A program made the translations under genes and the position numbers. DNA of 14,385 nt from a virus (Duplodnaviria; Heunggongvirae; Uroviricota; Caudoviricetes), in the IMG/VR virus record IMGVR_UViG_2718217884_000002, positions 1-14,385 of that record; one strand, 5' to 3'. Every line of letters starts with the position of its first letter. The stretch's first letter is position 1. Of the stretch, positions 1-7,313 are shown one piece after another. Below the pieces are notes generated by a model, which did no database searches, was not told the origin of the DNA, and was given only the letters and a program-made list of their open reading frames with translations.

Positions 1-201
1 TTACCCATTGGCGCGGCTTAAGAGCTTATTTTTGAATTCACAATGGTCACGATATAACCATCTTGCTCGCCCGTGGATAACTTTGGCTTTAGGCAGGTCT
101 CCGGACTTAATCCGGTCATAGATGAAGGTTTTACCGAAGCCAGTATCAGCCATGATGAATTTCAAATCAACCAGTGAATCAGGCTGTAGTTCGTGTTGCA
201 T
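1..201 (-). CDS. torI: TorI/Xis-type excisionase (recombination directionality factor), 66 aa, AlpA-like winged-helix DNA-binding protein
   Basis: Complete ORF: ATG at 201..199 with GGAG 9 nt upstream, TAA at 3..1. Protein MQHELQPDSLVDLKFIMADTGFGKTFIYDRIKSG... has the Xis/AlpA HTH pattern and is recalled as matching the 66-aa TorI excisionase of KplE1/CPS-53 (memory, not searched). Sits at the opposite end of the element from the integrase. Confidence 0.6.
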   Translation of the reverse strand: MQHELQPDSLVDLKFIMADTGFGKTFIYDRIKSGDLPKAKVIHGRARWLYRDHCEFKNKLLSRANG

Positions 202-246
202 GAGTGCTATCTCCGAATAGGGAATCGAACCTGCAAATCAGGCAAT

Positions 247-268
247 AAAAAACCGCCATCAGGCGGCT
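247..268 (-). terminator. Short hairpin with U-run on the minus strand, between the Zn-ribbon gene and the excisionase
   Basis: CCGCC (253..257) / GGCGG (262..266) with a 4-nt loop; on the minus strand the stem is followed by TTTTTTATT (reverse complement of 243..252). Stem is only 5 bp, so it may be an attenuator rather than a full terminator. Confidence 0.35.
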
Positions 269-347
269 TGGTGTTCTTTCAGTTCTTCAATTCGAATATT
301 GGTTACATTGTTTTCATATATGAATAAATAAATTAGCTTTTTTCGTT

Positions 348-356
348 GCCTTCGCG
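348..356. repeat. Left copy of 9-bp target-site duplication GCCTTCGCG flanking IS1 copy A
   Basis: Identical 9-mer at 348..356 and 1111..1119, directly abutting the IS1 termini. Confidence 0.85.
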
Positions 357-371
357 GGTAATGACTCCAAC

Positions 372-861
372 TTATTGATAGTGTTTTATGTTCAGATAAT
401 GCCCGATGACTTTGTCATGCAGCTCCACCGATTTTGAGAACGACAGCGACTTCCGTCCCAGCCGTGCCAGGTGCTGCCTCAGATTCAGGTTATGCCGCTC
501 AATTCGCTGCGTATATCGCTTGCTGATTACGTGCAGCTTTCCCTTCAGGCGGGATTCATACAGCGGCCAGCCATCACCACGTCAAAGGGTGACAGCAGGC
601 TCATAAGACGCCCCAGCGTCGCCATAGTGCGTTCCCGAATACGTGCGCAACAACCGTCTTCCGGAGCCTGTCATACGCGTAAAACAGCCAGCGCTGGCGC
701 GATTTAGCCCCGACATAGCCCCACTGTTCGTCCATTTCCGCGCAGACGATGACGTCACTGCCCGGCTGTATGCGCGAGGTTACCGACTGCGGCCTGAGTT
801 TTTTAAGTGACGTAAAATCGTGTTGAGGCCAACGCCCATAATGCGGGCTGTTGCCCGGCAT
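372..861 (-). pseudogene. insB: insB of IS1 copy A, disrupted by a 13-bp and a 1-bp deletion
   Basis: The ORF track shows only an 86-aa N-terminal InsB fragment (601..861) beginning [21 protein letters not shown]...; the copy-B equivalent is an intact 167-aa ORF. Alignment of the two copies in this window shows the missing bases. Confidence 0.8.
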
Positions 862-1055
862 CCAACGCCATTCATGGCCATATCAATGATTTTCTGGTGC
901 GTACCGGGTTGAGAAGCGGTGTAAGTGAACTGCAGTTGCCATGTTTTACGGCAGTGAGAGCAGAGATAGCGCTGATGTCCGGCGGTGCTTTTGCCGTTAC
1001 GCACCACCCCGTCAGTAGCTGAACAGGAGGGACAGCTGATAGAAACAGAAGCCAC
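780..1055 (-). CDS. insA: IS1 InsA (91 aa), intact
   Basis: 91-aa [46 protein letters not shown]... with the zinc-finger and HTH typical of IS1 InsA, inside the IS1 boundaries. Confidence 0.9.
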
Positions 1056-1083
1056 TGGAGCACCTCAAAAACACCATCATACA

Positions 1084-1275
1084 CTAAATCAGTAAGTTGG
1101 CAGCATCACCGCCTTCGCGTTCTTTATTAATTTTGACAAAATCGTTTTTACCACGCTCTCCAAATGCGTCTTTAGAGTCGTTGTATCCGCAATCGCAGCA
1201 CACATAATCATCAGACCATCCACGCATTGTTTTTTCTTTTGCAATATTTCCAGAACCGCATTTTGGACAAGACAT
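1084..1275 (-). CDS. Small zinc-ribbon protein (CPKCG...CCDCGY), C-terminus rewritten by the IS1 insertion
   Basis: ATG at 1275..1273 preceded by GGAGG 7 nt upstream; the 11 N-terminal residues in the ORF track are read-through of the RBS region. Two Cys pairs (CPKC, CDCG). The frame now runs 8 codons into IS1 (GDAANLLI, stop at 1084). Joining the flanks across the duplication gives a native end ...KEREGNEKS with stop at 335..333. Confidence 0.5.
   Translation of the reverse strand: MSCPKCGSGNIAKEKTMRGWSDDYVCCDCGYNDSKDAFGERGKNDFVKINKEREGGDAANLLI
1111..1119. repeat. Right copy of 9-bp target-site duplication GCCTTCGCG flanking IS1 copy A
   Basis: Identical to 348..356. Confidence 0.85.
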
Positions 1276-1371
1276 ATCACTACCTCCAAAGCATGAGTGA
1301 GATGACAACGTAACATTGATTGGAGATTAACAATAGATTGCTGATGTAAAAGATATGTATAAGCTTCGCTT

Positions 1372-2022
1372 TCAAAGTGGAGGCTCTGGTAGCGGCATCC
1401 AGTGAGTTACGTCATCCAAGATATTTCCTGATAAATACGTGAAAGCTCTATATTTTTTGTAATCAATTGGATTTACAACCCAGTTCCAATATGCGGCCAC
1501 GATTTCACCTTGACTAAATGCCAGTAACATTTTGGTGTCTTCCGGCATTCGCTCACTACAGCCAATCCAACCATCAGGAGTAACCGGAGAGTTGCCACCG
1601 GGAATATTTTCCGGAATATTTTGTTGTGCGTTTTGTGGTTGTTCGGATTTACCCTGAAGCATGGCAGCACGGCAGGCGTTCCAGCCAGCTGTTCGCCCAA
1701 GCGCGTAAACTTCAGATGGCTCAAGATAATCAATGTCCTGCCCGTCCTCATCGTCGTTCTCAGGTAATGCAGCAGGTACTACCGGTACTGGCGGGGCGGC
1801 GTAGACTTCAATTGTCCCATTATCAATAGGCCACTCCCCATCCTTGATGTAGTCACTTGTGCCGTCAACTTGCTGTTCAGCAATGTGGAATGCACCAACT
1901 GGCTCTGCCTCAAGCGAGGCCAGTGCAATTCGTGCCAGTTCCATTTGTTCGCCACGGGTAAGCCCGTTTTCAAGCGGGGATTTAATGAACAATTCGATAC
2001 GTTCTTTAGTGATAGTGCTCAT
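1372..2022 (-). CDS. DUF551-family prophage protein (about 216 aa)
   Basis: Start ATG 2022..2020 with AGGAGA upstream, 1 nt after the stop of the preceding gene. C-terminal region (...DGWIGCSERMPEDTKMLLAF...THWMPLPEPPL) resembles the DUF551 domain common in enterobacterial prophage early regions (recall). Confidence 0.55.
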   Translation of the reverse strand: MSTITKERIELFIKSPLENGLTRGEQMELARIALASLEAEPVGAFHIAEQQVDGTSDYIKDGEWPIDNGTIEVYAAPPVPVVPAALPENDDEDGQDIDYLEPSEVYALGRTAGWNACRAAMLQGKSEQPQNAQQNIPENIPGGNSPVTPDGWIGCSERMPEDTKMLLAFSQGEIVAAYWNWVVNPIDYKKYRAFTYLSGNILDDVTHWMPLPEPPL

Positions 2023-2023
2023 A

Positions 2024-2746
2024 TCACTCTCCTTTGATGCGAATGCCAGCGGCGCGGATAGATTTCCATTGTTTCCACATTCGGTTGAAGTCTGTGCCTG
2101 ATAAGGTTGCGTTACGGTATCCAGTTTCGGTGCGCAATCCTTCAAGCGTCGATTTGGAGATACAAATTGAATGCATTACCCATGATTCAAACAAATCACG
2201 CTCACGGGCTTCGCAACTTTGCTTACTCATCTCTTCGATACGTTCAGCCATCGCAGCACACTCTTCAAAGTTGCTTAATGCTTTTCGCTCCCATTCGGCG
2301 CATTGTTTTTCCAGTTCTGCAATGCGCTTACTTCCATCCGCGATTACTCCCTCGTAATATTCACGCTGCTCGTTGAGTTTTGATTTTGCTGCTTCAAGCT
2401 CAACGCGCAGCTTCCCTACCGTTAACACAATCTCCTCGTTCTCCTGGTCGCGGCGTTTGATGTATTGCTGGTTTCTTTCCAGCTCATCCAGCAGCGCCAA
2501 GACGGTAGCGGGATTGGCTGCGGCGATGAATTCAGCATTGGCCTGCTGTTCCATTTGGAAATCTTCATCGAAACCGCTTTCTGGATGCGCTCCTTCAATT
2601 CTGCAAATGGGAAGATATCCAACAACTTCACGATGAATTAGTGCATCACCAGCATCAAATCTCTCCTCTCCATATTCGAGCGACCACACACCACACGTTG
2701 CTTTTTCTGCCGCTTCACGCAGTGCCTGATAGTCAATCTTGTTCAT
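2024..2746 (-). CDS. Ead/Ea22-like early-left protein (240 aa), coiled-coil rich
   Basis: ATG 2746 with GGTGA 6 nt upstream; N-terminus MNKIDYQALREAAEKATCG... and central heptad-rich region resemble the Ea22-like family of lambdoid prophages (recall). Confidence 0.55.
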   Translation of the reverse strand: MNKIDYQALREAAEKATCGVWSLEYGEERFDAGDALIHREVVGYLPICRIEGAHPESGFDEDFQMEQQANAEFIAAANPATVLALLDELERNQQYIKRRDQENEEIVLTVGKLRVELEAAKSKLNEQREYYEGVIADGSKRIAELEKQCAEWERKALSNFEECAAMAERIEEMSKQSCEARERDLFESWVMHSICISKSTLEGLRTETGYRNATLSGTDFNRMWKQWKSIRAAGIRIKGE

Positions 2747-2747
2747 G

Positions 2748-3047
2748 TCACATCACCCTGAAGCCGTTGCATTTACGTAAGAAATCGCAGATATAGCCCT
2801 TCATTTTTTCATGCCAATCTCGATCATTCCCATTGCACCACCCATCAGGTGGAGTCCAGTTTTCTATCAGAGCAGCCATTTTCTTTGCTTTCGCCGGAGT
2901 AGCTGTTGCGGTATCGCAGTAATGACGAGTGTCAACAAACTTATCCATGCCATCGATATCAAGTACGCAAAACCATGTGTGATTCGGAATTCCTACAGGT
3001 GGTATTTGTTGCCCACGTCGGCGTTTATCAATGAGATATACACTCAC
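2748..3047 (-). CDS. Hypothetical early-left protein (99 aa)
   Basis: GTG start at 3047 with a strong AAGGAGG 6 nt upstream; start overlaps the stop of the upstream gene (GTGA). No family recognised. Confidence 0.5.
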   Translation of the reverse strand: MSVYLIDKRRRGQQIPPVGIPNHTWFCVLDIDGMDKFVDTRHYCDTATATPAKAKKMAALIENWTPPDGWCNGNDRDWHEKMKGYICDFLRKCNGFRVM

Positions 3048-3493
3048 TGGTTACCTCCTTTGCGAAGCTCTGCGGCGAACTCGTTAAGTGATATGTAGCA
3101 ATCTCCAAATGTTAACGAACCGCTCGACTGCATATGCTCCATAGCCATCTCCACGCCCTGCGCCCGTACTTCAGCCAGGAAAGCATCGGTGGCTGGGGTT
3201 TCAGTAACATCATCTTCCCATTCGCTAAACTCCTCACGACAAAAGTCATTAAATTCCTTCTCAGATTGCTTAAGCGAGGTATTTTCAGCAGCCATCTTCG
3301 CGCATTTAGCCTCAAGGTTATCAATCGTGATTCCAGCAGAACGACACTCCCGCAACGCCGTTTCTAGTTTTGATTCAAGTTCACCGAACTTACGCACCAG
3401 ATATTCAGCGTTTGTTTCGTTAACCTTTAAATCTCGGGGGATGCATTTACCTTTCAGAAAACCATCCATCTCAATTAGTGACATTTGTTTCAT
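3044..3493 (-). CDS. Hypothetical coiled-coil early-left protein (149 aa from [12 protein letters not shown]...)
   Basis: ATG 3493 with GGAG 9 nt upstream, overlapping the stop of the upstream small ORF (ATGA). No family recognised. Confidence 0.5.
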
Positions 3494-3654
3494 TTCTTCC
3501 CACTCCGCCACATTGCATTCAGATATTTGTTGTCATTAACAGAGCCGAAACTATTTCTCTTAAGCAATTCCTCTCTCGATGGCATTGGCTTTACGCGTTG
3601 GCGAATAATCATTTCTGCCGGAAGAATGCCGGGATTGTATGCAAGTCCTCTCAT
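3490..3654 (-). CDS. Small hypothetical protein (54 aa, [32 protein letters not shown]...)
   Basis: ATG 3654 with GAGGA 7 nt upstream; translationally coupled to neighbours on both sides. The longer 104-aa ORF in the track is probably an unsupported N-terminal extension. Confidence 0.4.
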
Positions 3655-3664
3655 GGTAAATTCC

Positions 3665-3958
3665 TCAGTCATTACTGATAGCGCCATAGCGTGAGCGGTA
3701 ATTACGCAGGCGCGGGTCAATTTCAGGGAAGTGGGTATATGTGGCTTTGCGGAATGGTCGGATTGATATCTGGTAAATTCGCTCGCGTTCTTCTTTCTCT
3801 GCAAGCCATATACAATAGCGAAATTCCTTTTCCTCTTTCGTTTCCTGCGGTAGAGACATTATTCGATCGTAGTTTTTTCTGAATTTATCCAGCACCTCCG
3901 ATACGGAATTGCCGGAACAGCGGCGCGGGTCATCCGCACCATACAGAGGCGCTGGCAT
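3665..3958 (-). CDS. Hypothetical early-left protein (97 aa)
   Basis: ATG 3958 with AAGGA 8 nt upstream; same strand and tight spacing as neighbours. No family recognised. Confidence 0.45.
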
Positions 3959-3981
3959 AATTAAATCCTTATTTTTCTAAA

Positions 3982-4365
3982 TCAGAATGGGATGGAATCG
4001 TCGTATACAGGATGATTTTGATGATTGCTACTTTGCTGCTGTTGGCTGTTTCCTGAAGTTGCAAATCCAATCTTTGCATTCAGTAATTCAAGAGTGATTG
4101 ATTGACCATTTTGCCCCTGATAAACATCAACCCTGATGTTTTCTCCGGTAATTTCCACAATTCCACCTTCAACAAGAACACTACGGTAGTAATCCGCTTG
4201 CGCTCCCGGCTTGGCAAATACAACGGCGCTGTAGTTTGTCCATTCTTTCTTTTTTGTCTGGCGATCGTAATACTGAACGCCAGCACGGATGTTGAATCCG
4301 ATATTTTCCCCGGCCTGAAACTCTCTTGCGGGCTTGTTTAGTCTTACAGTAATCGAATGTGCCAT
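3982..4365 (-). CDS. ssb: Phage single-stranded DNA-binding protein-like (127 aa) with acidic C-terminal tip ...YDDSIPF
   Basis: ATG 4365..4363 with AAGGAG 10 nt upstream, overlapping the upstream stop (TAATG). OB-fold-like core (KEWTNYSAVVFAKPG...LVEGGIVEITGE) followed by a Q/S-rich linker and a DDSIPF tail resembling the bacterial SSB C-terminal DDDIPF motif (established knowledge). Confidence 0.6.
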   Translation of the reverse strand: MAHSITVRLNKPAREFQAGENIGFNIRAGVQYYDRQTKKKEWTNYSAVVFAKPGAQADYYRSVLVEGGIVEITGENIRVDVYQGQNGQSITLELLNAKIGFATSGNSQQQQSSNHQNHPVYDDSIPF

Positions 4366-4577
4366 TAAGCAGCCGCTCCTTCTAATTCGTCTCGTCTGAT
4401 GTTGTAAACGTCCTGCGCTTTGTGCTGCTCCGGTGTGCCTTCGAGCATCTTCCACGCTTTGGCGAACGCCTGTTTAAGCTCTTCCACGGTGTTTTTCTGC
4501 AATGCTGCGTCAGTGAATGCTTTTAGAACCTGTTCTGATGCGGCTAACTTTGAAGCAAGGCTCGACACCTTTAAAGC
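4365..4577 (-). pseudogene. 5'-truncated remnant of an early-left gene, possibly the C-terminus of a recombinase that normally precedes ssb
   Basis: Frame opens only 3 codons above a GTG at 4568 with no usable RBS; the remnant ends TAA overlapping the ssb ATG. Sits exactly at the predicted deletion junction. Recombinase identity is inference from typical phage gene order only. Confidence 0.3.
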
Positions 4578-4578
4578 T

Positions 4579-4845
4579 CAAACATTCCTTCCTATGGTGC
4601 AGTCCCTGAAGGGTATGGGCGCTCTTTCAGATGCTGAGGGTAAAAAACTATCCGATGCGGTTGGTGCCCTAAGTCCCAAAATGAGTGAAAAGGCTTTTCG
4701 TGACTCTATCGGAAAGATTAGAAATCAGCTTGAAAGCAAGTTGAGCACTGTTAAAAAACAGTTTGATTATCAGGAGCCGGTGCAGAATATGCCAGGGCAA
4801 CAATCTACTACTGGCAGTAACTTTTCTTCACTATGGGGTGATTAA
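4579..4845 (+). pseudogene. 5'-truncated 3' remnant of a virion ejection (DNA-transfer) protein gene
   Basis: Protein-like reading (...FKAQTFLPMVQSLKGMGALSDAEGKKLSDAVGALSPK...) with no plausible start or RBS; its stop TAA overlaps the next ATG (TAATG at 4843..4847). Ejection-protein assignment is from position upstream of the tailspike only. Confidence 0.3.
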
Positions 4846-5744
4846 TGGCTAAAGCATGGAAAGATGTTATCGCCTCTCCACAGTATCAGGCGTTAGCACC
4901 AGAACAAAAAGCGCAGGCTCAGGAGCAATACTTCAATGAAGTCGTGGCCCCGCAAGCCGGAGAAAATGCAGAGCAGGCTAAGCAAGCTTTCTATGCTGCC
5001 TATCCATTGCCATCTGTGCAGCAAGTGGAGACACAGCAACCAGTAGCACAGCAACAACCACAGCAAAGTGGATTTATGTCTGATCTTGGCGAAGCAGTAA
5101 AAGAGACTGGCCGCGGACTGGTGCAGGCTGGCGTGAACGTGGCAAACATACCTGCATCAGTTGCAGATGCTGTAACAAGCGCGGCGGCTTGGGCTGGCGG
5201 TAAACTCGGAATTGGCGATGGGACATATCACCCTGCGCCACGAGTAACAACGCAGGGATTAGAGCAGGACTTTGGCCTTCAGCAAGGCGCGCTGACTCCA
5301 CAAACTACAGAGGGAAGGGTATTTGCTGAGGCATTGCCTTACCTCACTCCTGCTGGCATTGAGAGAGCGGCAACACAGGCACCAACACTCGCTGGTAGAA
5401 TCGCTCAGGGTGCAACTCGCCTTCTCGCTGAAAACGCAGTCGGGTCACTTGCTGCAAATAGTGCGAAAGATGATGCGGAAGCACTCGCTACCGATTTAGG
5501 CGTTGGCGTTCTGGCTGGCGGCGCTATTAACGCTGCCGGACGTGGATTAGGCGCTGCTTATCGTGGCGTTCGTGGTGCTATTGCACCAGAAGCGCAGCAA
5601 GCTATCAGATTTGCAGAGCGTGAAGGAGTGCCTCTGCACACCACAGACCTGTTACAGCCTACTTCCCGCGTCGGAAAAATGGCGCAAACGACAGCAGAAA
5701 ATATCCCCCTGGCTGGCACAAGCGGAATGAGAGCAACGCAATAG
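4845..5744 (+). CDS. Ejection/internal virion protein-like, A/Q/G-rich (299 aa)
   Basis: ATG 4845 coupled to the upstream remnant. Low-complexity A/Q/G-rich composition and location two genes upstream of a P22-type tailspike fit the gp20/gp16-like ejection proteins of P22-like phages (synteny inference). Ends at TAG 5742..5744, in frame with the next ORF. Confidence 0.45.
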   Translation: MAKAWKDVIASPQYQALAPEQKAQAQEQYFNEVVAPQAGENAEQAKQAFYAAYPLPSVQQVETQQPVAQQQPQQSGFMSDLGEAVKETGRGLVQAGVNVANIPASVADAVTSAAAWAGGKLGIGDGTYHPAPRVTTQGLEQDFGLQQGALTPQTTEGRVFAEALPYLTPAGIERAATQAPTLAGRIAQGATRLLAENAVGSLAANSAKDDAEALATDLGVGVLAGGAINAAGRGLGAAYRGVRGAIAPEAQQAIRFAEREGVPLHTTDLLQPTSRVGKMAQTTAENIPLAGTSGMRATQ

Positions 5745-5759
5745 GAAGCGAGAAGCCAG

Positions 5760-6842
5760 TTGGTTCAGAGATTTGCTGATAAATTCGGTGAGTATGATCC
5801 AGCGGTTGTTATTGACAGCCTTAAAGCGAAAACATCAGGAATTCGTCGCGCTGCAGGAAATCGACTGGAGCAGGTTCAGAATGCTATGGCGGGAATAAAC
5901 ATTCAGCCTGCAAGAGCAATTCAGCAGATTGATACAGAAATATCTAACCTGCAGAAGCTTGGTAAGGTTGCTGATAACGAGACTATTTCAAAACTTCAGT
6001 CCTATCGTGATGAGCTTGTTCGCAATGCTGGTCCTGATGGTCCGGTAAATCTGGATTTGAAGCAATTAAGCGATCTGCGCAGCCAGTTCAGAATGGACGT
6101 GAAGGGGGAGCGACCAGTGTTACCAAACCGTTCCGATGCTGCCATTCAGCGCGTTTACAAGGCAATGACCGACGATATCAATGGTGCCATTGGTCAGAAT
6201 CTTGGCAACGATACTCTCCGTAAATATCAGCAGGCCAATGCCGTCTACGCTGACGAAGCGGCGAAACTAAAGAATACCAGGCTGAAGAATGTTCTCATGA
6301 AAGGCGACCTGACGCCGGAAGTTGTCAACAACATGCTATTCAGCAAGAACAAATCGGAAATTAAGACTCTCTATAACTCAGTTGGTCGTGTTGGCAGGGC
6401 GCAAATGCGCAATGGCATCATTGGAAAGGCGATGGAGAAATCAGGTGGTTCCCCTGACCAGTTCCTTCGGCAGCTTAACATCCTGCAAAACCAGACTGGC
6501 ATCACATTTAAAGGTCAGGAAGCCGCTTATCTGAAAGGATTGAAAAACTACCTGCAATCCACGCAGCAGGCTGCAAAAGCGGCAGTAACAACACCCACAG
6601 GGCAGCAAACTATCCCGTTCATTATTGGGTATGGGACGGCAATGAACCCGGCGACAACTGGCGCAGCAGTAAGCTACGGACTTCTTACTCGCGCCTATGA
6701 GAGCGAGCCATTCAGAAATGCAATGCTCCGAATGGCAAACACCCCACGCGGATCAACAGCGTTCGAGAAAGCCATGCAGCAGGCACAAAAGGCCATTAAC
6801 GCCCTGACTCAGGGGGCTAAGTCTGATGCGCTGTCAGAATAG
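5760..6842 (+). CDS. Ejection/internal virion protein-like (360 aa), possibly the downstream part of one gene interrupted by an amber codon
   Basis: Same reading frame as 4845..5744, separated by a single TAG and 5 codons. The only start is TTG at 5760 with a poorly spaced GGAAG; the first in-frame ATG is about 40 codons in. Confidence 0.4.
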   Translation: MVQRFADKFGEYDPAVVIDSLKAKTSGIRRAAGNRLEQVQNAMAGINIQPARAIQQIDTEISNLQKLGKVADNETISKLQSYRDELVRNAGPDGPVNLDLKQLSDLRSQFRMDVKGERPVLPNRSDAAIQRVYKAMTDDINGAIGQNLGNDTLRKYQQANAVYADEAAKLKNTRLKNVLMKGDLTPEVVNNMLFSKNKSEIKTLYNSVGRVGRAQMRNGIIGKAMEKSGGSPDQFLRQLNILQNQTGITFKGQEAAYLKGLKNYLQSTQQAAKAAVTTPTGQQTIPFIIGYGTAMNPATTGAAVSYGLLTRAYESEPFRNAMLRMANTPRGSTAFEKAMQQAQKAINALTQGAKSDALSE

Positions 6843-6931
6843 CTTCGCAAACACCAGGAACGTGCAAAAACCAAATATGTAGAACGCAATATTCAGCATA
6901 TCTCTTTGCATAAATCCTCCGTAATGGATGG

Positions 6932-7192
6932 TTATCTGCTGTCTTTTTTATATAGCTTCTTGAGCGTATCAAAGACAATTTTCTTAACCATATCAGATTG
7001 TTGTTCTGCCATACGCTCTGCATCGTCAATGTAAACTGATGCAGAGCTTTGTTTAGCCAACGATTCTTCAATCGCTGCAATTATCTCTGAGTTCAGCGAT
7101 CTGTTATTCATCTTCGCACGCTGCTTAATTTTCGCGTGGAGTTCATGCGGAAGTCTCAAGTGAAACTGCGCCTCGTCGTATTTGCTGTACAT
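6932..7192 (-). CDS. mnt: Mnt-like ribbon-helix-helix repressor (Arc/MetJ family), 86 aa
   Basis: ATG 7192 with GGTGAGG upstream. ...YDEAQFHLRLPHELHAKIKQRAKMNNRSLNSEIIAAIEESL...DDAERMAEQQSDMVKKIVFDTLKKLYKK aligns along its length with phage P22 Mnt as recalled (FNFRMP...NGRSMNSE...NDAERLADEQSELVKKMVFDTLKDLYKK). Divergent from the tailspike, as in the P22 immI region. Confidence 0.7.
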   Translation of the reverse strand: MYSKYDEAQFHLRLPHELHAKIKQRAKMNNRSLNSEIIAAIEESLAKQSSASVYIDDAERMAEQQSDMVKKIVFDTLKKLYKKDSR

Positions 7193-7265
7193 CCTTGATG
7201 CCTCACCAGTTGGGTGGAATGGCATCGTAACCTACTGGATAAATACTCAATAGTACCATTTCGGT

Positions 7266-7296
7266 ATGCAATCACATCATGGTTGCATCATATCAT
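7266..7296. promoter_or_regulatory. Candidate operator/promoter: palindrome ATGCAA-N11-TTGCAT overlapping direct repeats ATCACATCAT / ATCATATCAT, 18-48 bp upstream of the tailspike ATG
   Basis: ATGCAA 7266..7271 and TTGCAT 7283..7288; ATCACATCAT 7271..7280 and ATCATATCAT 7287..7296; TATCAT (7291..7296) is a possible -10. In the divergent mnt-tailspike intergenic region. Confidence 0.25.
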
Positions 7297-7313
7297 TCGT
7301 CTGGAGCAATGAA

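Follow-up and report, generated by a model that had tools for sequence, protein, structure and literature searches.

Mnt of phage P22 is a textbook repressor that binds as a tetramer to one roughly 17-bp symmetric operator, and to our knowledge its sole job is the silencing of the antirepressor gene. In the P22 immI region the order is mnt, Pmnt/Pant with Oarc and Omnt, arc, sar and ant, and the region is located between gene 16 and gene 9. The name "ant moron" was given by Villafane et al. 2008 (PMC2629481) to the variable DNA that separates gene 16 from the tailspike gene; in ST64T, ST104 and one Paratyphi prophage this block was reported to hold just mnt and one unknown gene, and some phages, Sf6 among them, lack a moron (PMC2629481). 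It was also suggested there that the moron and its repressors may affect the amount of late transcription reaching the tailspike (Villafane et al. 2008, PMC2629481). The mnt-only arrangement was found in phage L too, with the comment 'another function or a remnant' (Zaworski et al. 2020, PMC8022706). The two explanations offered in the original prediction for the locus described here, a rewired Mnt and a relic, were both already in print for phage L (PMC8022706). Larger blocks are known from CUS-3, which has two mnt genes and ant with no arc, and from JEP4-type phages, in which a gene for an mnt1/C2-like repressor, arc, Rha and KilA are followed by an mnt of class 3 (see below) before the tailspike.

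The locus lies in a 14,385-nucleotide stretch of DNA (IMG/VR virus record IMGVR_UViG_2718217884_000002, positions 1 to 14,385), referred to as the window. By its gene content, the window cassette is an mnt-only "ant moron", a layout already described, with a specificity class of its own. Common to P22 immI and the window are the genomic slot, the orientation of mnt, the two-domain Mnt and the register of the operator past CTCAATAG; the operator sequence and the DNA-reading residues differ. L, ST64T, ST104 and ST160/SE1 resemble the window in having an orphan mnt 120-135 bp from the tailspike start and in keeping Pmnt and a palindromic operator next to a decayed Pant. Unlike the window, they combine QFNLR with AGACCAC-N-GTGGTCT and have gene 16 and mnt separated by an extra small gene (orf62/orf64).

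Prophage context of the cassette

From torI to intS, the window comprises an entire P22-like prophage, defective and of the KplE1/Sf101 type. Its place among the P22-like phages (Lederbergvirus) was recognised from the head-binding tailspike, the gene 16-type ejection protein, IntS/TorI and the genes collinear with Sf101. The features of the window are listed in Table 1. Early-left genes collinear with phage Sf101 (eag, ead, abc2 and the 3' end of erf) occupied positions 244-4535, and at a junction at about 4535-4570 the early-left region ran straight into the last part of the late operon. Missing were the genes for primary immunity, replication, lysis and the head together with most tail genes, and the late promoter region was deleted altogether. 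The acyltransferase gene was followed by an unassigned ORF, an IS1 copy and intS; a second IS1 copy splits the early-left region.

Table 1. Positions of genes, predicted regulatory sites and repeats in the window.
Feature	Position	Strand	Remarks
torI excisionase gene	1-201	minus	Window begins at the torI stop codon
Gene 16-type DNA-transfer/lytic transglycosylase gene	4845..6842	+	Convergent with mnt; in-frame stop at 5742-5744
mnt (86 aa + stop)	6932..7192	-	N-terminal ribbon-helix-helix DNA-binding domain, C-terminal Mnt tetramerisation helix
Inverted repeat GATGCC-N18-GGCATC	7197..7226		Inner CACC/GGTG pair; covers Pmnt -10 and the mnt leader/ribosome-binding region
Pmnt (predicted)	7224..7250	-	-35 TTGAGT 7250->7245, 15-bp spacer, -10 TACGAT 7229->7224
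Mnt operator (predicted), GTACCATTTCGGTAT	7253..7267		Arms TACC 7254-7257 and GGTA 7263-7266
Palindrome ATGCAA-N11-TTGCAT of the original prediction	7266-7288		Present in the sequence
Direct repeats ATCACATCAT / ATCATATCAT of the original prediction	7271-7280, 7287-7296		Present; 9/10 match
Tailspike Shine-Dalgarno GGAG	7303..7306	+	7 nt before ATG; read directly from the sequence
Tailspike gene (789 aa, intact)	7314..9683	+	P22-type head-binding domain, then receptor-binding domain
Acyltransferase gene	9713-10870	minus	Downstream of the tailspike gene
intS	13228-14385	minus	Window ends at the intS start codon

The two ORFs of the interrupted gene 16-type gene (4845-5744 and 5760-6842) share one frame, and E. 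coli H2 encodes an intact homologue of 665 aa, equal in length to the interrupted gene. In the window, mnt was the only gene between this gene and the tailspike gene, at a distance of 89 bp from the stop of gene 16, and no terminator was predicted between the gene 16-type gene and mnt. The tailspike matched the Pfam families Head_binding (residues 1-113, E 5.5e-67) and Tail_spike_N. Its start is the same as in the RefSeq annotation of E. coli H2, and the sequence TCTGGAGCAA at its ribosome-binding site is kept across P22-like phages. The E. coli H2 prophage at argW is a similar remnant, with an mnt-tailspike junction 100% identical to that of the window.

An intact Mnt homologue without arc, ant or sar

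Pfam analysis of the window Mnt showed an N-terminal Arc/MetJ-type ribbon-helix-helix domain (PF03869, residues 7-49, E 6.8e-15) and a C-terminal Repressor_Mnt domain (PF11423, residues 57-82, E 9e-15). Matches in the PDB were 1mnt (E 5e-19) and the tetramerisation-domain structure 1qey (E 4e-8), and the C-terminal tetramerisation helix reads DAERMAEQQSDMVKKIVFDTLKKLYKK in the window protein compared with DAERLADEQSELVKKMVFDTLKDLYKK in P22. The original prediction had called the gene an Mnt homologue and named alignment with P22 Mnt as the test of this; similarity was present (48.8% identity over 80 aa, E 9e-26) and, together with the Pfam and PDB matches, bears out the homology.

By homology and RefSeq annotation, the start of mnt is almost certainly the ATG at 7192, giving 86 aa, and not the ATG at 7225 of the longest ORF (97 aa). 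RefSeq E. coli genomes annotate the product as an 86-aa Arc family protein. With the start at 7192, the mnt-tailspike spacer comprises positions 7193-7313 and measures 121 bp, in agreement with the distance of about 120 bp given earlier.

The absence of arc and ant, also predicted, was confirmed by tblastn in all six frames of the window. Three Arc proteins, that of P22 among them, matched only the ribbon-helix-helix domain of mnt itself, and P22 Ant, CUS-3 Ant, JEP4 KilA/Rha and the VSe13 antirepressor fragment produced no match better than E 0.19. No Rfam match for sar RNA was obtained at the gathering threshold in the window, nor at E<=1 in 6800-7400. The features by which a P22-type immI region is recognised, namely arc, ant, sar and a strong Pant overlapping Pmnt with Omnt at the start site, are missing from the window, and so are the ant terminator, sieA, hkcC and orf59a.

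Predicted promoters in the mnt-tailspike spacer

Alignment with annotated P22 showed that, towards mnt, the layout of the spacer is still that of P22. The predicted Pmnt had a PWM score of 8.5, in the top 0.04% of the window background, although its 15-bp spacer is suboptimal, and its register relative to the operator is that of P22 Pmnt (TTGAGA-17-TATCAT in the P22 annotation). Sister promoters predicted in the same register were TTGTTG-17-TACGAT (VSe13, JEP4), TTGTGG-17-TATGAT (L), TTGAGG-17-TAAGAT (Gally) and TTGTAA-17-TATTAT (Brookers). Pmnt is retained in every orphan lineage (PWM 8.5-11.8), and the motif GCATCGT was invariant across 62 distinct spacer sequences.

Rightward promoters showed the opposite picture. 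P22 Pant (TTGACA-17-TATATT) scored 16.7, whereas its counterparts in the orphan cassettes scored 4-7, which is background level. The best rightward candidate of the window, the equivalent of P22 Pant, was a weak ATGGCA-17-AATACT at 7219-7247 (PWM 6.9) with a predicted start that falls at the operator. No plus-strand promoter was found in the spacer by the consensus scan and none above background by the PWM scan. By these scores the strong rightward Pant is lost from the window cassette. The original prediction had proposed that the direct repeats overlap a possible -10 of the tailspike gene; the hexamer TATCAT at 7291-7296 was rejected as such, having no usable -35 and a score of 4.9, within background. 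The sole call of the consensus scan, a leftward CTGACA-17-AATGAT at 7320->7292, was lineage-specific and compatible with chance, and was set aside.

Predicted operator and rejected motifs

The sequence GTACCATTTCGGTAT lies upstream of both the Pmnt -35, at 2 bp, and the tailspike ATG, at 47 bp. In the alignment with annotated P22 (BK000583) it takes the position of Omnt, directly past the shared CTCAATAG. P22 has CTCAATAG-GTCCACGGTGGACC, in which TTGAG on the opposite strand is the Pmnt -35 and the palindrome is Omnt, and the window has CTCAATAG-TACCATTTCGGTA at 7246-7266. The palindrome at this position spans 13-15 bp. The pattern TACC-N5-GGTA occurred once in the window, where 0.07 occurrences were expected, and once in the whole 38.7-kb genome of the complete phage Sf101, with no second Mnt site elsewhere in it. 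Each of 69 out of 71 further class-3 loci had it a single time, at 61-78 bp upstream of mnt; its arms never changed in these loci, but its inner bases did. Right past this site, spacer conservation drops sharply. Among 71 near-identical loci the site, which makes up 14% of the spacer length, held 4 of 32 distinct changes, a sparse data set. By its register and its invariant arms, GTACCATTTCGGTAT is likely the operator for the window Mnt.

The comparison of 7193..7313 with P22 Omnt, as proposed originally, thus revealed an in-register counterpart, located at 7253-7267 and not at the palindrome ATGCAA-N11-TTGCAT. That palindrome and the direct repeats do occur where they had been reported, and as an operator both were rejected: two 6-bp inverted repeats arise within 121 bp in 18% of shuffles and a 9/10 direct repeat in 3%, and the motifs are poorly conserved across relatives. 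The stretch 7266-7296 was the most variable of the spacer among the 71 near-identical loci, and unrelated sequence replaces it in VSe13, JEP4, L and Gally. In these alignments it is a filler particular to the lineage, placed after the operator and before the tailspike ribosome-binding site.

Specificity classes of Mnt

Three classes of Mnt were distinguished by the N-terminal DNA-reading strand and the operator. Class 1 (P22, epsilon34, UPF_BP1) has the strand DDPHFNFRMP and the operator GGTCCACGGTGGACC, and arc-ant always follows. Class 2 (L, ST160, Gally, Brookers) has the strand DDPQFNLRLP (EDTQFNLRLT in Brookers) and the operator AGACCAC-N-GTGGTCT; over 80 loci, all of them orphan (80/80), the arms were conserved and the centre base was A, C, G or T. 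Class 3 (the window, VSe13, JEP4) has the strand DEAQFHLRLP/T and the operator GTACC-R-TTT-M-GGTAT. As read from these alignments, the operator sequence differs in step with the DNA-reading strand across the three classes.

The N-terminal strand sets the specificity of Mnt and Arc via residues that correspond to the contact residues Arg2, His6, Asn8 and Arg10 of P22 Mnt, and these positions are where the Mnt classes differ. Their equivalents in the window Mnt are Lys4, Gln9, His11 and Arg13. By strand and operator, the window Mnt is of another specificity class than P22 Mnt, and the P22 operator specificity, GGTCCACGGTGGACC, is not found at the locus.

Distribution and origin of the cassette

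The window cassette was found in 226 IMG/VR relatives and in 253-276 of 5426 complete E. coli genomes (about 5%). It was present with the 121-bp spacer in Sf101 (NC_027398), IME10 (NC_019501) and E. coli H2-type argW prophages at 97.5-100% nucleotide identity (97.5-97.8% for Sf101 and IME10); unlike the window, which is a deleted remnant, these two phages are complete. The mnt of Sf101 is mis-annotated as a 97-aa 'partition protein ATPase', and that of IME10 is unannotated. Among the best 80 of the 226 IMG/VR loci, 70 had gene 16, mnt and the tailspike in the order of the window, 60 had a spacer of exactly 121 bp, and none had arc or ant next to mnt.

An mnt directly divergent from the tailspike gene and without arc/ant was found in L, ST160, Gally, vB_EcoP-720R6, Brookers (Proteus), VSe13, JEP4, Sf101 and IME10, and mnt was the immediate divergent neighbour of the tailspike gene in all of about 230 loci. 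Neither arc nor an intact ant stood beside mnt in the class-3 loci of two scans (80 in the first) or in 80 class-2 loci, and this uniformity indicates that the orphan state is stable and not transient. In many relatives a second module is located upstream (a P22-like mnt or C2-like repressor, arc, Rha, KilA). These two-repressor morons are like the window in having the class-3 mnt cassette and the same operator directly before the tailspike gene, and unlike it in having a complete upstream antirepressor module with its own repressors. The class-3 site was absent from this upstream module.

Relatives also retain traces of how the cassette may have arisen. The relative L149 has the last 110 codons of a P22-type ant and a terminator between the same operator and the tailspike gene, with the junction at CGTAGCCACGCTGCGGCGAT, a 'boundary sequence' annotated in CUS-3 and repeated in the P22 ant-gene 9 spacer. 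In VSe13 and JEP4, CGTAGCCACGCTGCGGCGAT directly links the operator to the tailspike ribosome-binding site; the window lineage instead carries another 30-bp filler (7267-7297), and homology to the sequence upstream of the Sf6 and HK620 tailspike genes starts only at about 7298. Recombination between copies of the boundary sequence would have excised arc-ant and left mnt, Pmnt and the operator. An origin of the window cassette by arc-ant deletion from an immI-type region is supported by these junctions. The relic of a deleted immI region proposed in the original prediction holds in this sense of origin, through the Ant remnant of L149 at the boundary sequence. It does not hold in the sense of a dying gene, given the state of mnt described next.

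Selection on mnt

Of the 81 mnt copies compared, which represent 56 distinct alleles, 80 were intact; there were zero frameshifts and one nonsense codon. Distinct codon changes comprised 32 synonymous and 34 non-synonymous ones, for a crude dN/dS of about 0.25, and the DNA-reading strand was near invariant, with a single Q-to-K change in the 81 copies. The intact copies, the lack of frameshifts and the crude dN/dS speak against a decaying pseudogene, and the pattern argues for purifying selection on mnt.

Possible present role of the orphan Mnt

An intact Mnt with a matching operator, but no antirepressor, is found in hundreds of P22-like prophages of E. coli, Shigella, Salmonella and Proteus. 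Mnt kept in this state has either an unrecognised second function or is an unusually persistent fossil. The purifying selection, the co-variation of operator and strand and the loss of the opposing promoter narrow this question, and the exact candidate sites can now be named. For the window itself, the result is an ordinary one, a common cassette in a decayed prophage.

We consider it probable, though only modestly so, that the cassette is a minimal "ant moron" composed of a selected Mnt, its own Pmnt and one cognate operator, left by the loss of arc, ant, sar and Pant, and with a putative role as roadblock or insulator. Recombination beside the operator would have removed arc, ant, sar and the strong Pant, and a self-contained mnt cassette would have stayed. 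Its product would be a working tetrameric ribbon-helix-helix repressor with the strand ...DEAQFHLRLP in place of the ...DDPHFNFRMP of P22. We infer constitutive synthesis of this Mnt from Pmnt (7250->7224) and its binding to one palindrome, GTACCATTTCGGTAT. The bound protein and leftward Pmnt transcription would then most likely block or dampen rightward transcription that passes the operator into the tailspike gene in the prophage, and Pmnt itself would stay free. Neither under the operator nor downstream of it was a credible sigma-70 promoter for the tailspike gene found, and from this it follows that in intact relatives the tailspike gene would be read from the late operon, with transcription probably running antisense through mnt as in P22. 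In P22, Mnt at Omnt reportedly does not repress Pmnt, and a site upstream of the -35 with no opposing promoter would for that reason have no obvious regulatory output. A gp23-modified late polymerase may ignore an Mnt roadblock. Since the prophage in the window is defective, any role in late transcription is moot there.

A wider reading is put forward tentatively, and we regard it as possible but doubtful: the solitary cassette of mnt and operator would be a module maintained for a task that needs no antirepressor, and it would have diversified into at least two operator specificities while orphan. One candidate task would be that of a roadblock and convergent promoter that insulate the tailspike gene in lysogens or set the late tailspike dose.

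The original prediction offered, as one option, an Mnt rewired to control the tailspike gene, which would repress a dedicated tailspike promoter through ATGCAA-N11-TTGCAT or the ATCA(C/T)ATCAT repeats. Such a regulator would fit with mnt always adjoining the tailspike gene divergently in about 230 loci, with TATCAT at 7291-7296 and with the weak ATGGCA-17-AATACT whose predicted start falls at the operator. The adjacency, however, is accounted for by moron synteny, the consensus scan gave no plus-strand promoter, and the PWM scores of 4.9 and 6.9 are at the level of several chance sites in a region of such size. The motifs are themselves at chance level, variable, and missing from sisters that keep mnt, operator and tailspike gene. 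With Pant gone (6.9 at the equivalent position compared with 16.7 in P22, and 4.9 for TATCAT), no tailspike-ward promoter is left for Mnt to repress, and the rewiring proposal is considered quite improbable. The loss of arc, ant and Pant would suit a functionless cassette, kept by linkage to the tailspike gene and frequent horizontal spread. This would also agree with the lack of a second operator in the Sf101 genome, the persistence of the cassette even in defective prophages (the window and E. coli H2), the nonsense codon in 1 of 81 copies and an operator for which no stronger constraint than in the remaining spacer could be measured in close relatives, where data are sparse. A dead cassette is nevertheless unlikely in our estimation: mnt is free of frameshifts and intact in 80 of 81 copies, its crude dN/dS is 0.25, the DNA-reading strand shows one Q-to-K change in these copies, two independent specificity classes hold their palindromic arms while centre bases drift, and Pmnt has been retained in all lineages, unlike the decayed opposing Pant.

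Two further explanations place the target of Mnt elsewhere. As established by P22 genetics, P22 Mnt acts on superinfecting P22 genomes, and by this precedent a resident Mnt could repress the ant promoter of incoming relatives through the same operator, shielding the prophage repressor from antirepressor-mediated induction. Immunity in trans would account for selection on both the protein and its specificity, and within this prophage family relatives commonly carry an Ant, Rha or KilA antirepressor module. Against this, no intact ant stood under a class-3 or class-2 operator in about 230 loci, and the antirepressor operon of the two-module relatives has its own Mnt/Arc pair and no TACC-N5-GGTA. 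The IMG/VR pattern scan found no antirepressor under the same operator in other phages and returned just the same cassettes, chance matches and one unrelated phage family. We hold this explanation to have little probability, comparable to that of a dead cassette. Action on the host chromosome or another mobile element, with Mnt as a regulator of lysogenic conversion, would explain purifying selection without an obvious cis target and the retention of the cassette in cryptic remnants beside O-antigen-modifying genes. No evidence for such a target was found, short motifs give chance matches in large collections, and an external target is regarded as very improbable.

In the unrelated IMG/VR phage family, the palindrome formed the tip of a 5'-leader hairpin, and its one Ant-like match was located 12 kb from the site. 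The GATGCC/GGCATC inverted repeat upstream of mnt was conserved in class 2 and class 3 cassettes; its covariation amounted to one compensatory pair, in an alignment that had the Brookers sequence misaligned.

Signals around the mnt-tailspike spacer

An inverted repeat with an inner CACC/GGTG pair, positioned over the -10 element of the predicted leftward mnt promoter Pmnt (Table), was retained in both class 2 and class 3 cassettes of Mnt specificity. At the same position, the class 2 phage Brookers had TTTGTC...GACAAA instead, which hints at a compensatory change in the inverted repeat. The consensus scan gave a sole promoter-like call, CTGACA-17-AATGAT. If this promoter is real, its transcript would span the predicted Mnt operator at approximately +19 to +33, and this would imply negative autoregulation. 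The site was confined to the lineage of the window and is compatible with a chance occurrence.

The operator-like 16-mer GTACCGTTTCGGTATG was present twice, 515 bp apart, in an unrelated phage family (L181, as well as L185, L204, L212, L233, L244, and L284). Each copy was located about 25 nt 5' of a small gene and was nested in a longer GGCTGT...ACAGCC inverted repeat that took in the ribosome-binding site. Rather than a Mnt site, the 16-mer in this family probably represents a repeated hairpin of the 5' leader.

Coordinates of the features in the window and in two compared loci (L149 and L181)
Feature	Location	Strand	Remark
torI	window 1-201	minus	stop codon is one prophage boundary
IS1 copy 1	window ~343-1110		terminal repeat 1088-1110
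Gene 16-type DNA-transfer/lytic transglycosylase gene	window 4845-6842		in-frame stop 5742-5744
GATGCC-N18-GGCATC inverted repeat	window 7197-7226		overlaps Pmnt -10 and mnt ribosome-binding region
CTGACA-17-AATGAT	window 7320->7292	minus	overlaps tailspike start codon, directed at mnt
IS1 copy 2	window ~12239-13006		terminal repeat 12984-13006; InsA/InsB ORFs 12254-12951
intS start codon	window 14385		other prophage boundary
Ant C-terminal fragment and its terminator	L149 414-795		between class 3 Mnt operator and tailspike
Regions with GTACCGTTTCGGTATG copies	L181 7545-7615 and 8060-8125

Prophage extent and insertion sequences

The KplE1/Sf101-type defective prophage occupied the entire window (1-14385), and E. 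coli H2 carried a similar prophage remnant at argW. At its 3' end, erf was fused to the end of the late operon by a deletion at ~4535-4570, which took out the genes for immunity, replication, lysis, and the head. The gene 16-type gene was interrupted by a stop codon, and its neighbours mnt and the tailspike gene were both intact. The two IS1 copies had the same orientation and flanked the mnt and tailspike segment in a composite-transposon-like layout. The first copy split the early-left region, where comparison with Sf101 showed an apparent target duplication of 9 bp.

Related morons and annotation of mnt homologues

Many P22-like prophages contained two Mnt-type repressors within a single moron, the variable block ahead of the tailspike (L101, L109, L127, about 40 other IMG/VR loci, JEP4, and CUS-3). 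In these, mnt1 or a C2-like repressor gene made up a complete module together with arc and, after it, either Rha/KilA or Ant; next came a second mnt, of class 3, that was convergent and immediately ahead of the tailspike. The Ant fragment of L149 corresponded to residues 191-300, with 93% identity to P22 Ant, and its junction was at the boundary sequence CGTAGCCACGCTGCGGCGAT. This arrangement looks like an intermediate step of arc-ant loss.

The Sf101 mnt homologue (NC_027398.1 gp14, L001 4007-4300) was labelled "partition protein ATPase" or "chromosome segregation ATPase", and its annotated start codon, which gives 97 aa, is probably too early. The homologue in IME10 (NC_019501) carried no annotation.
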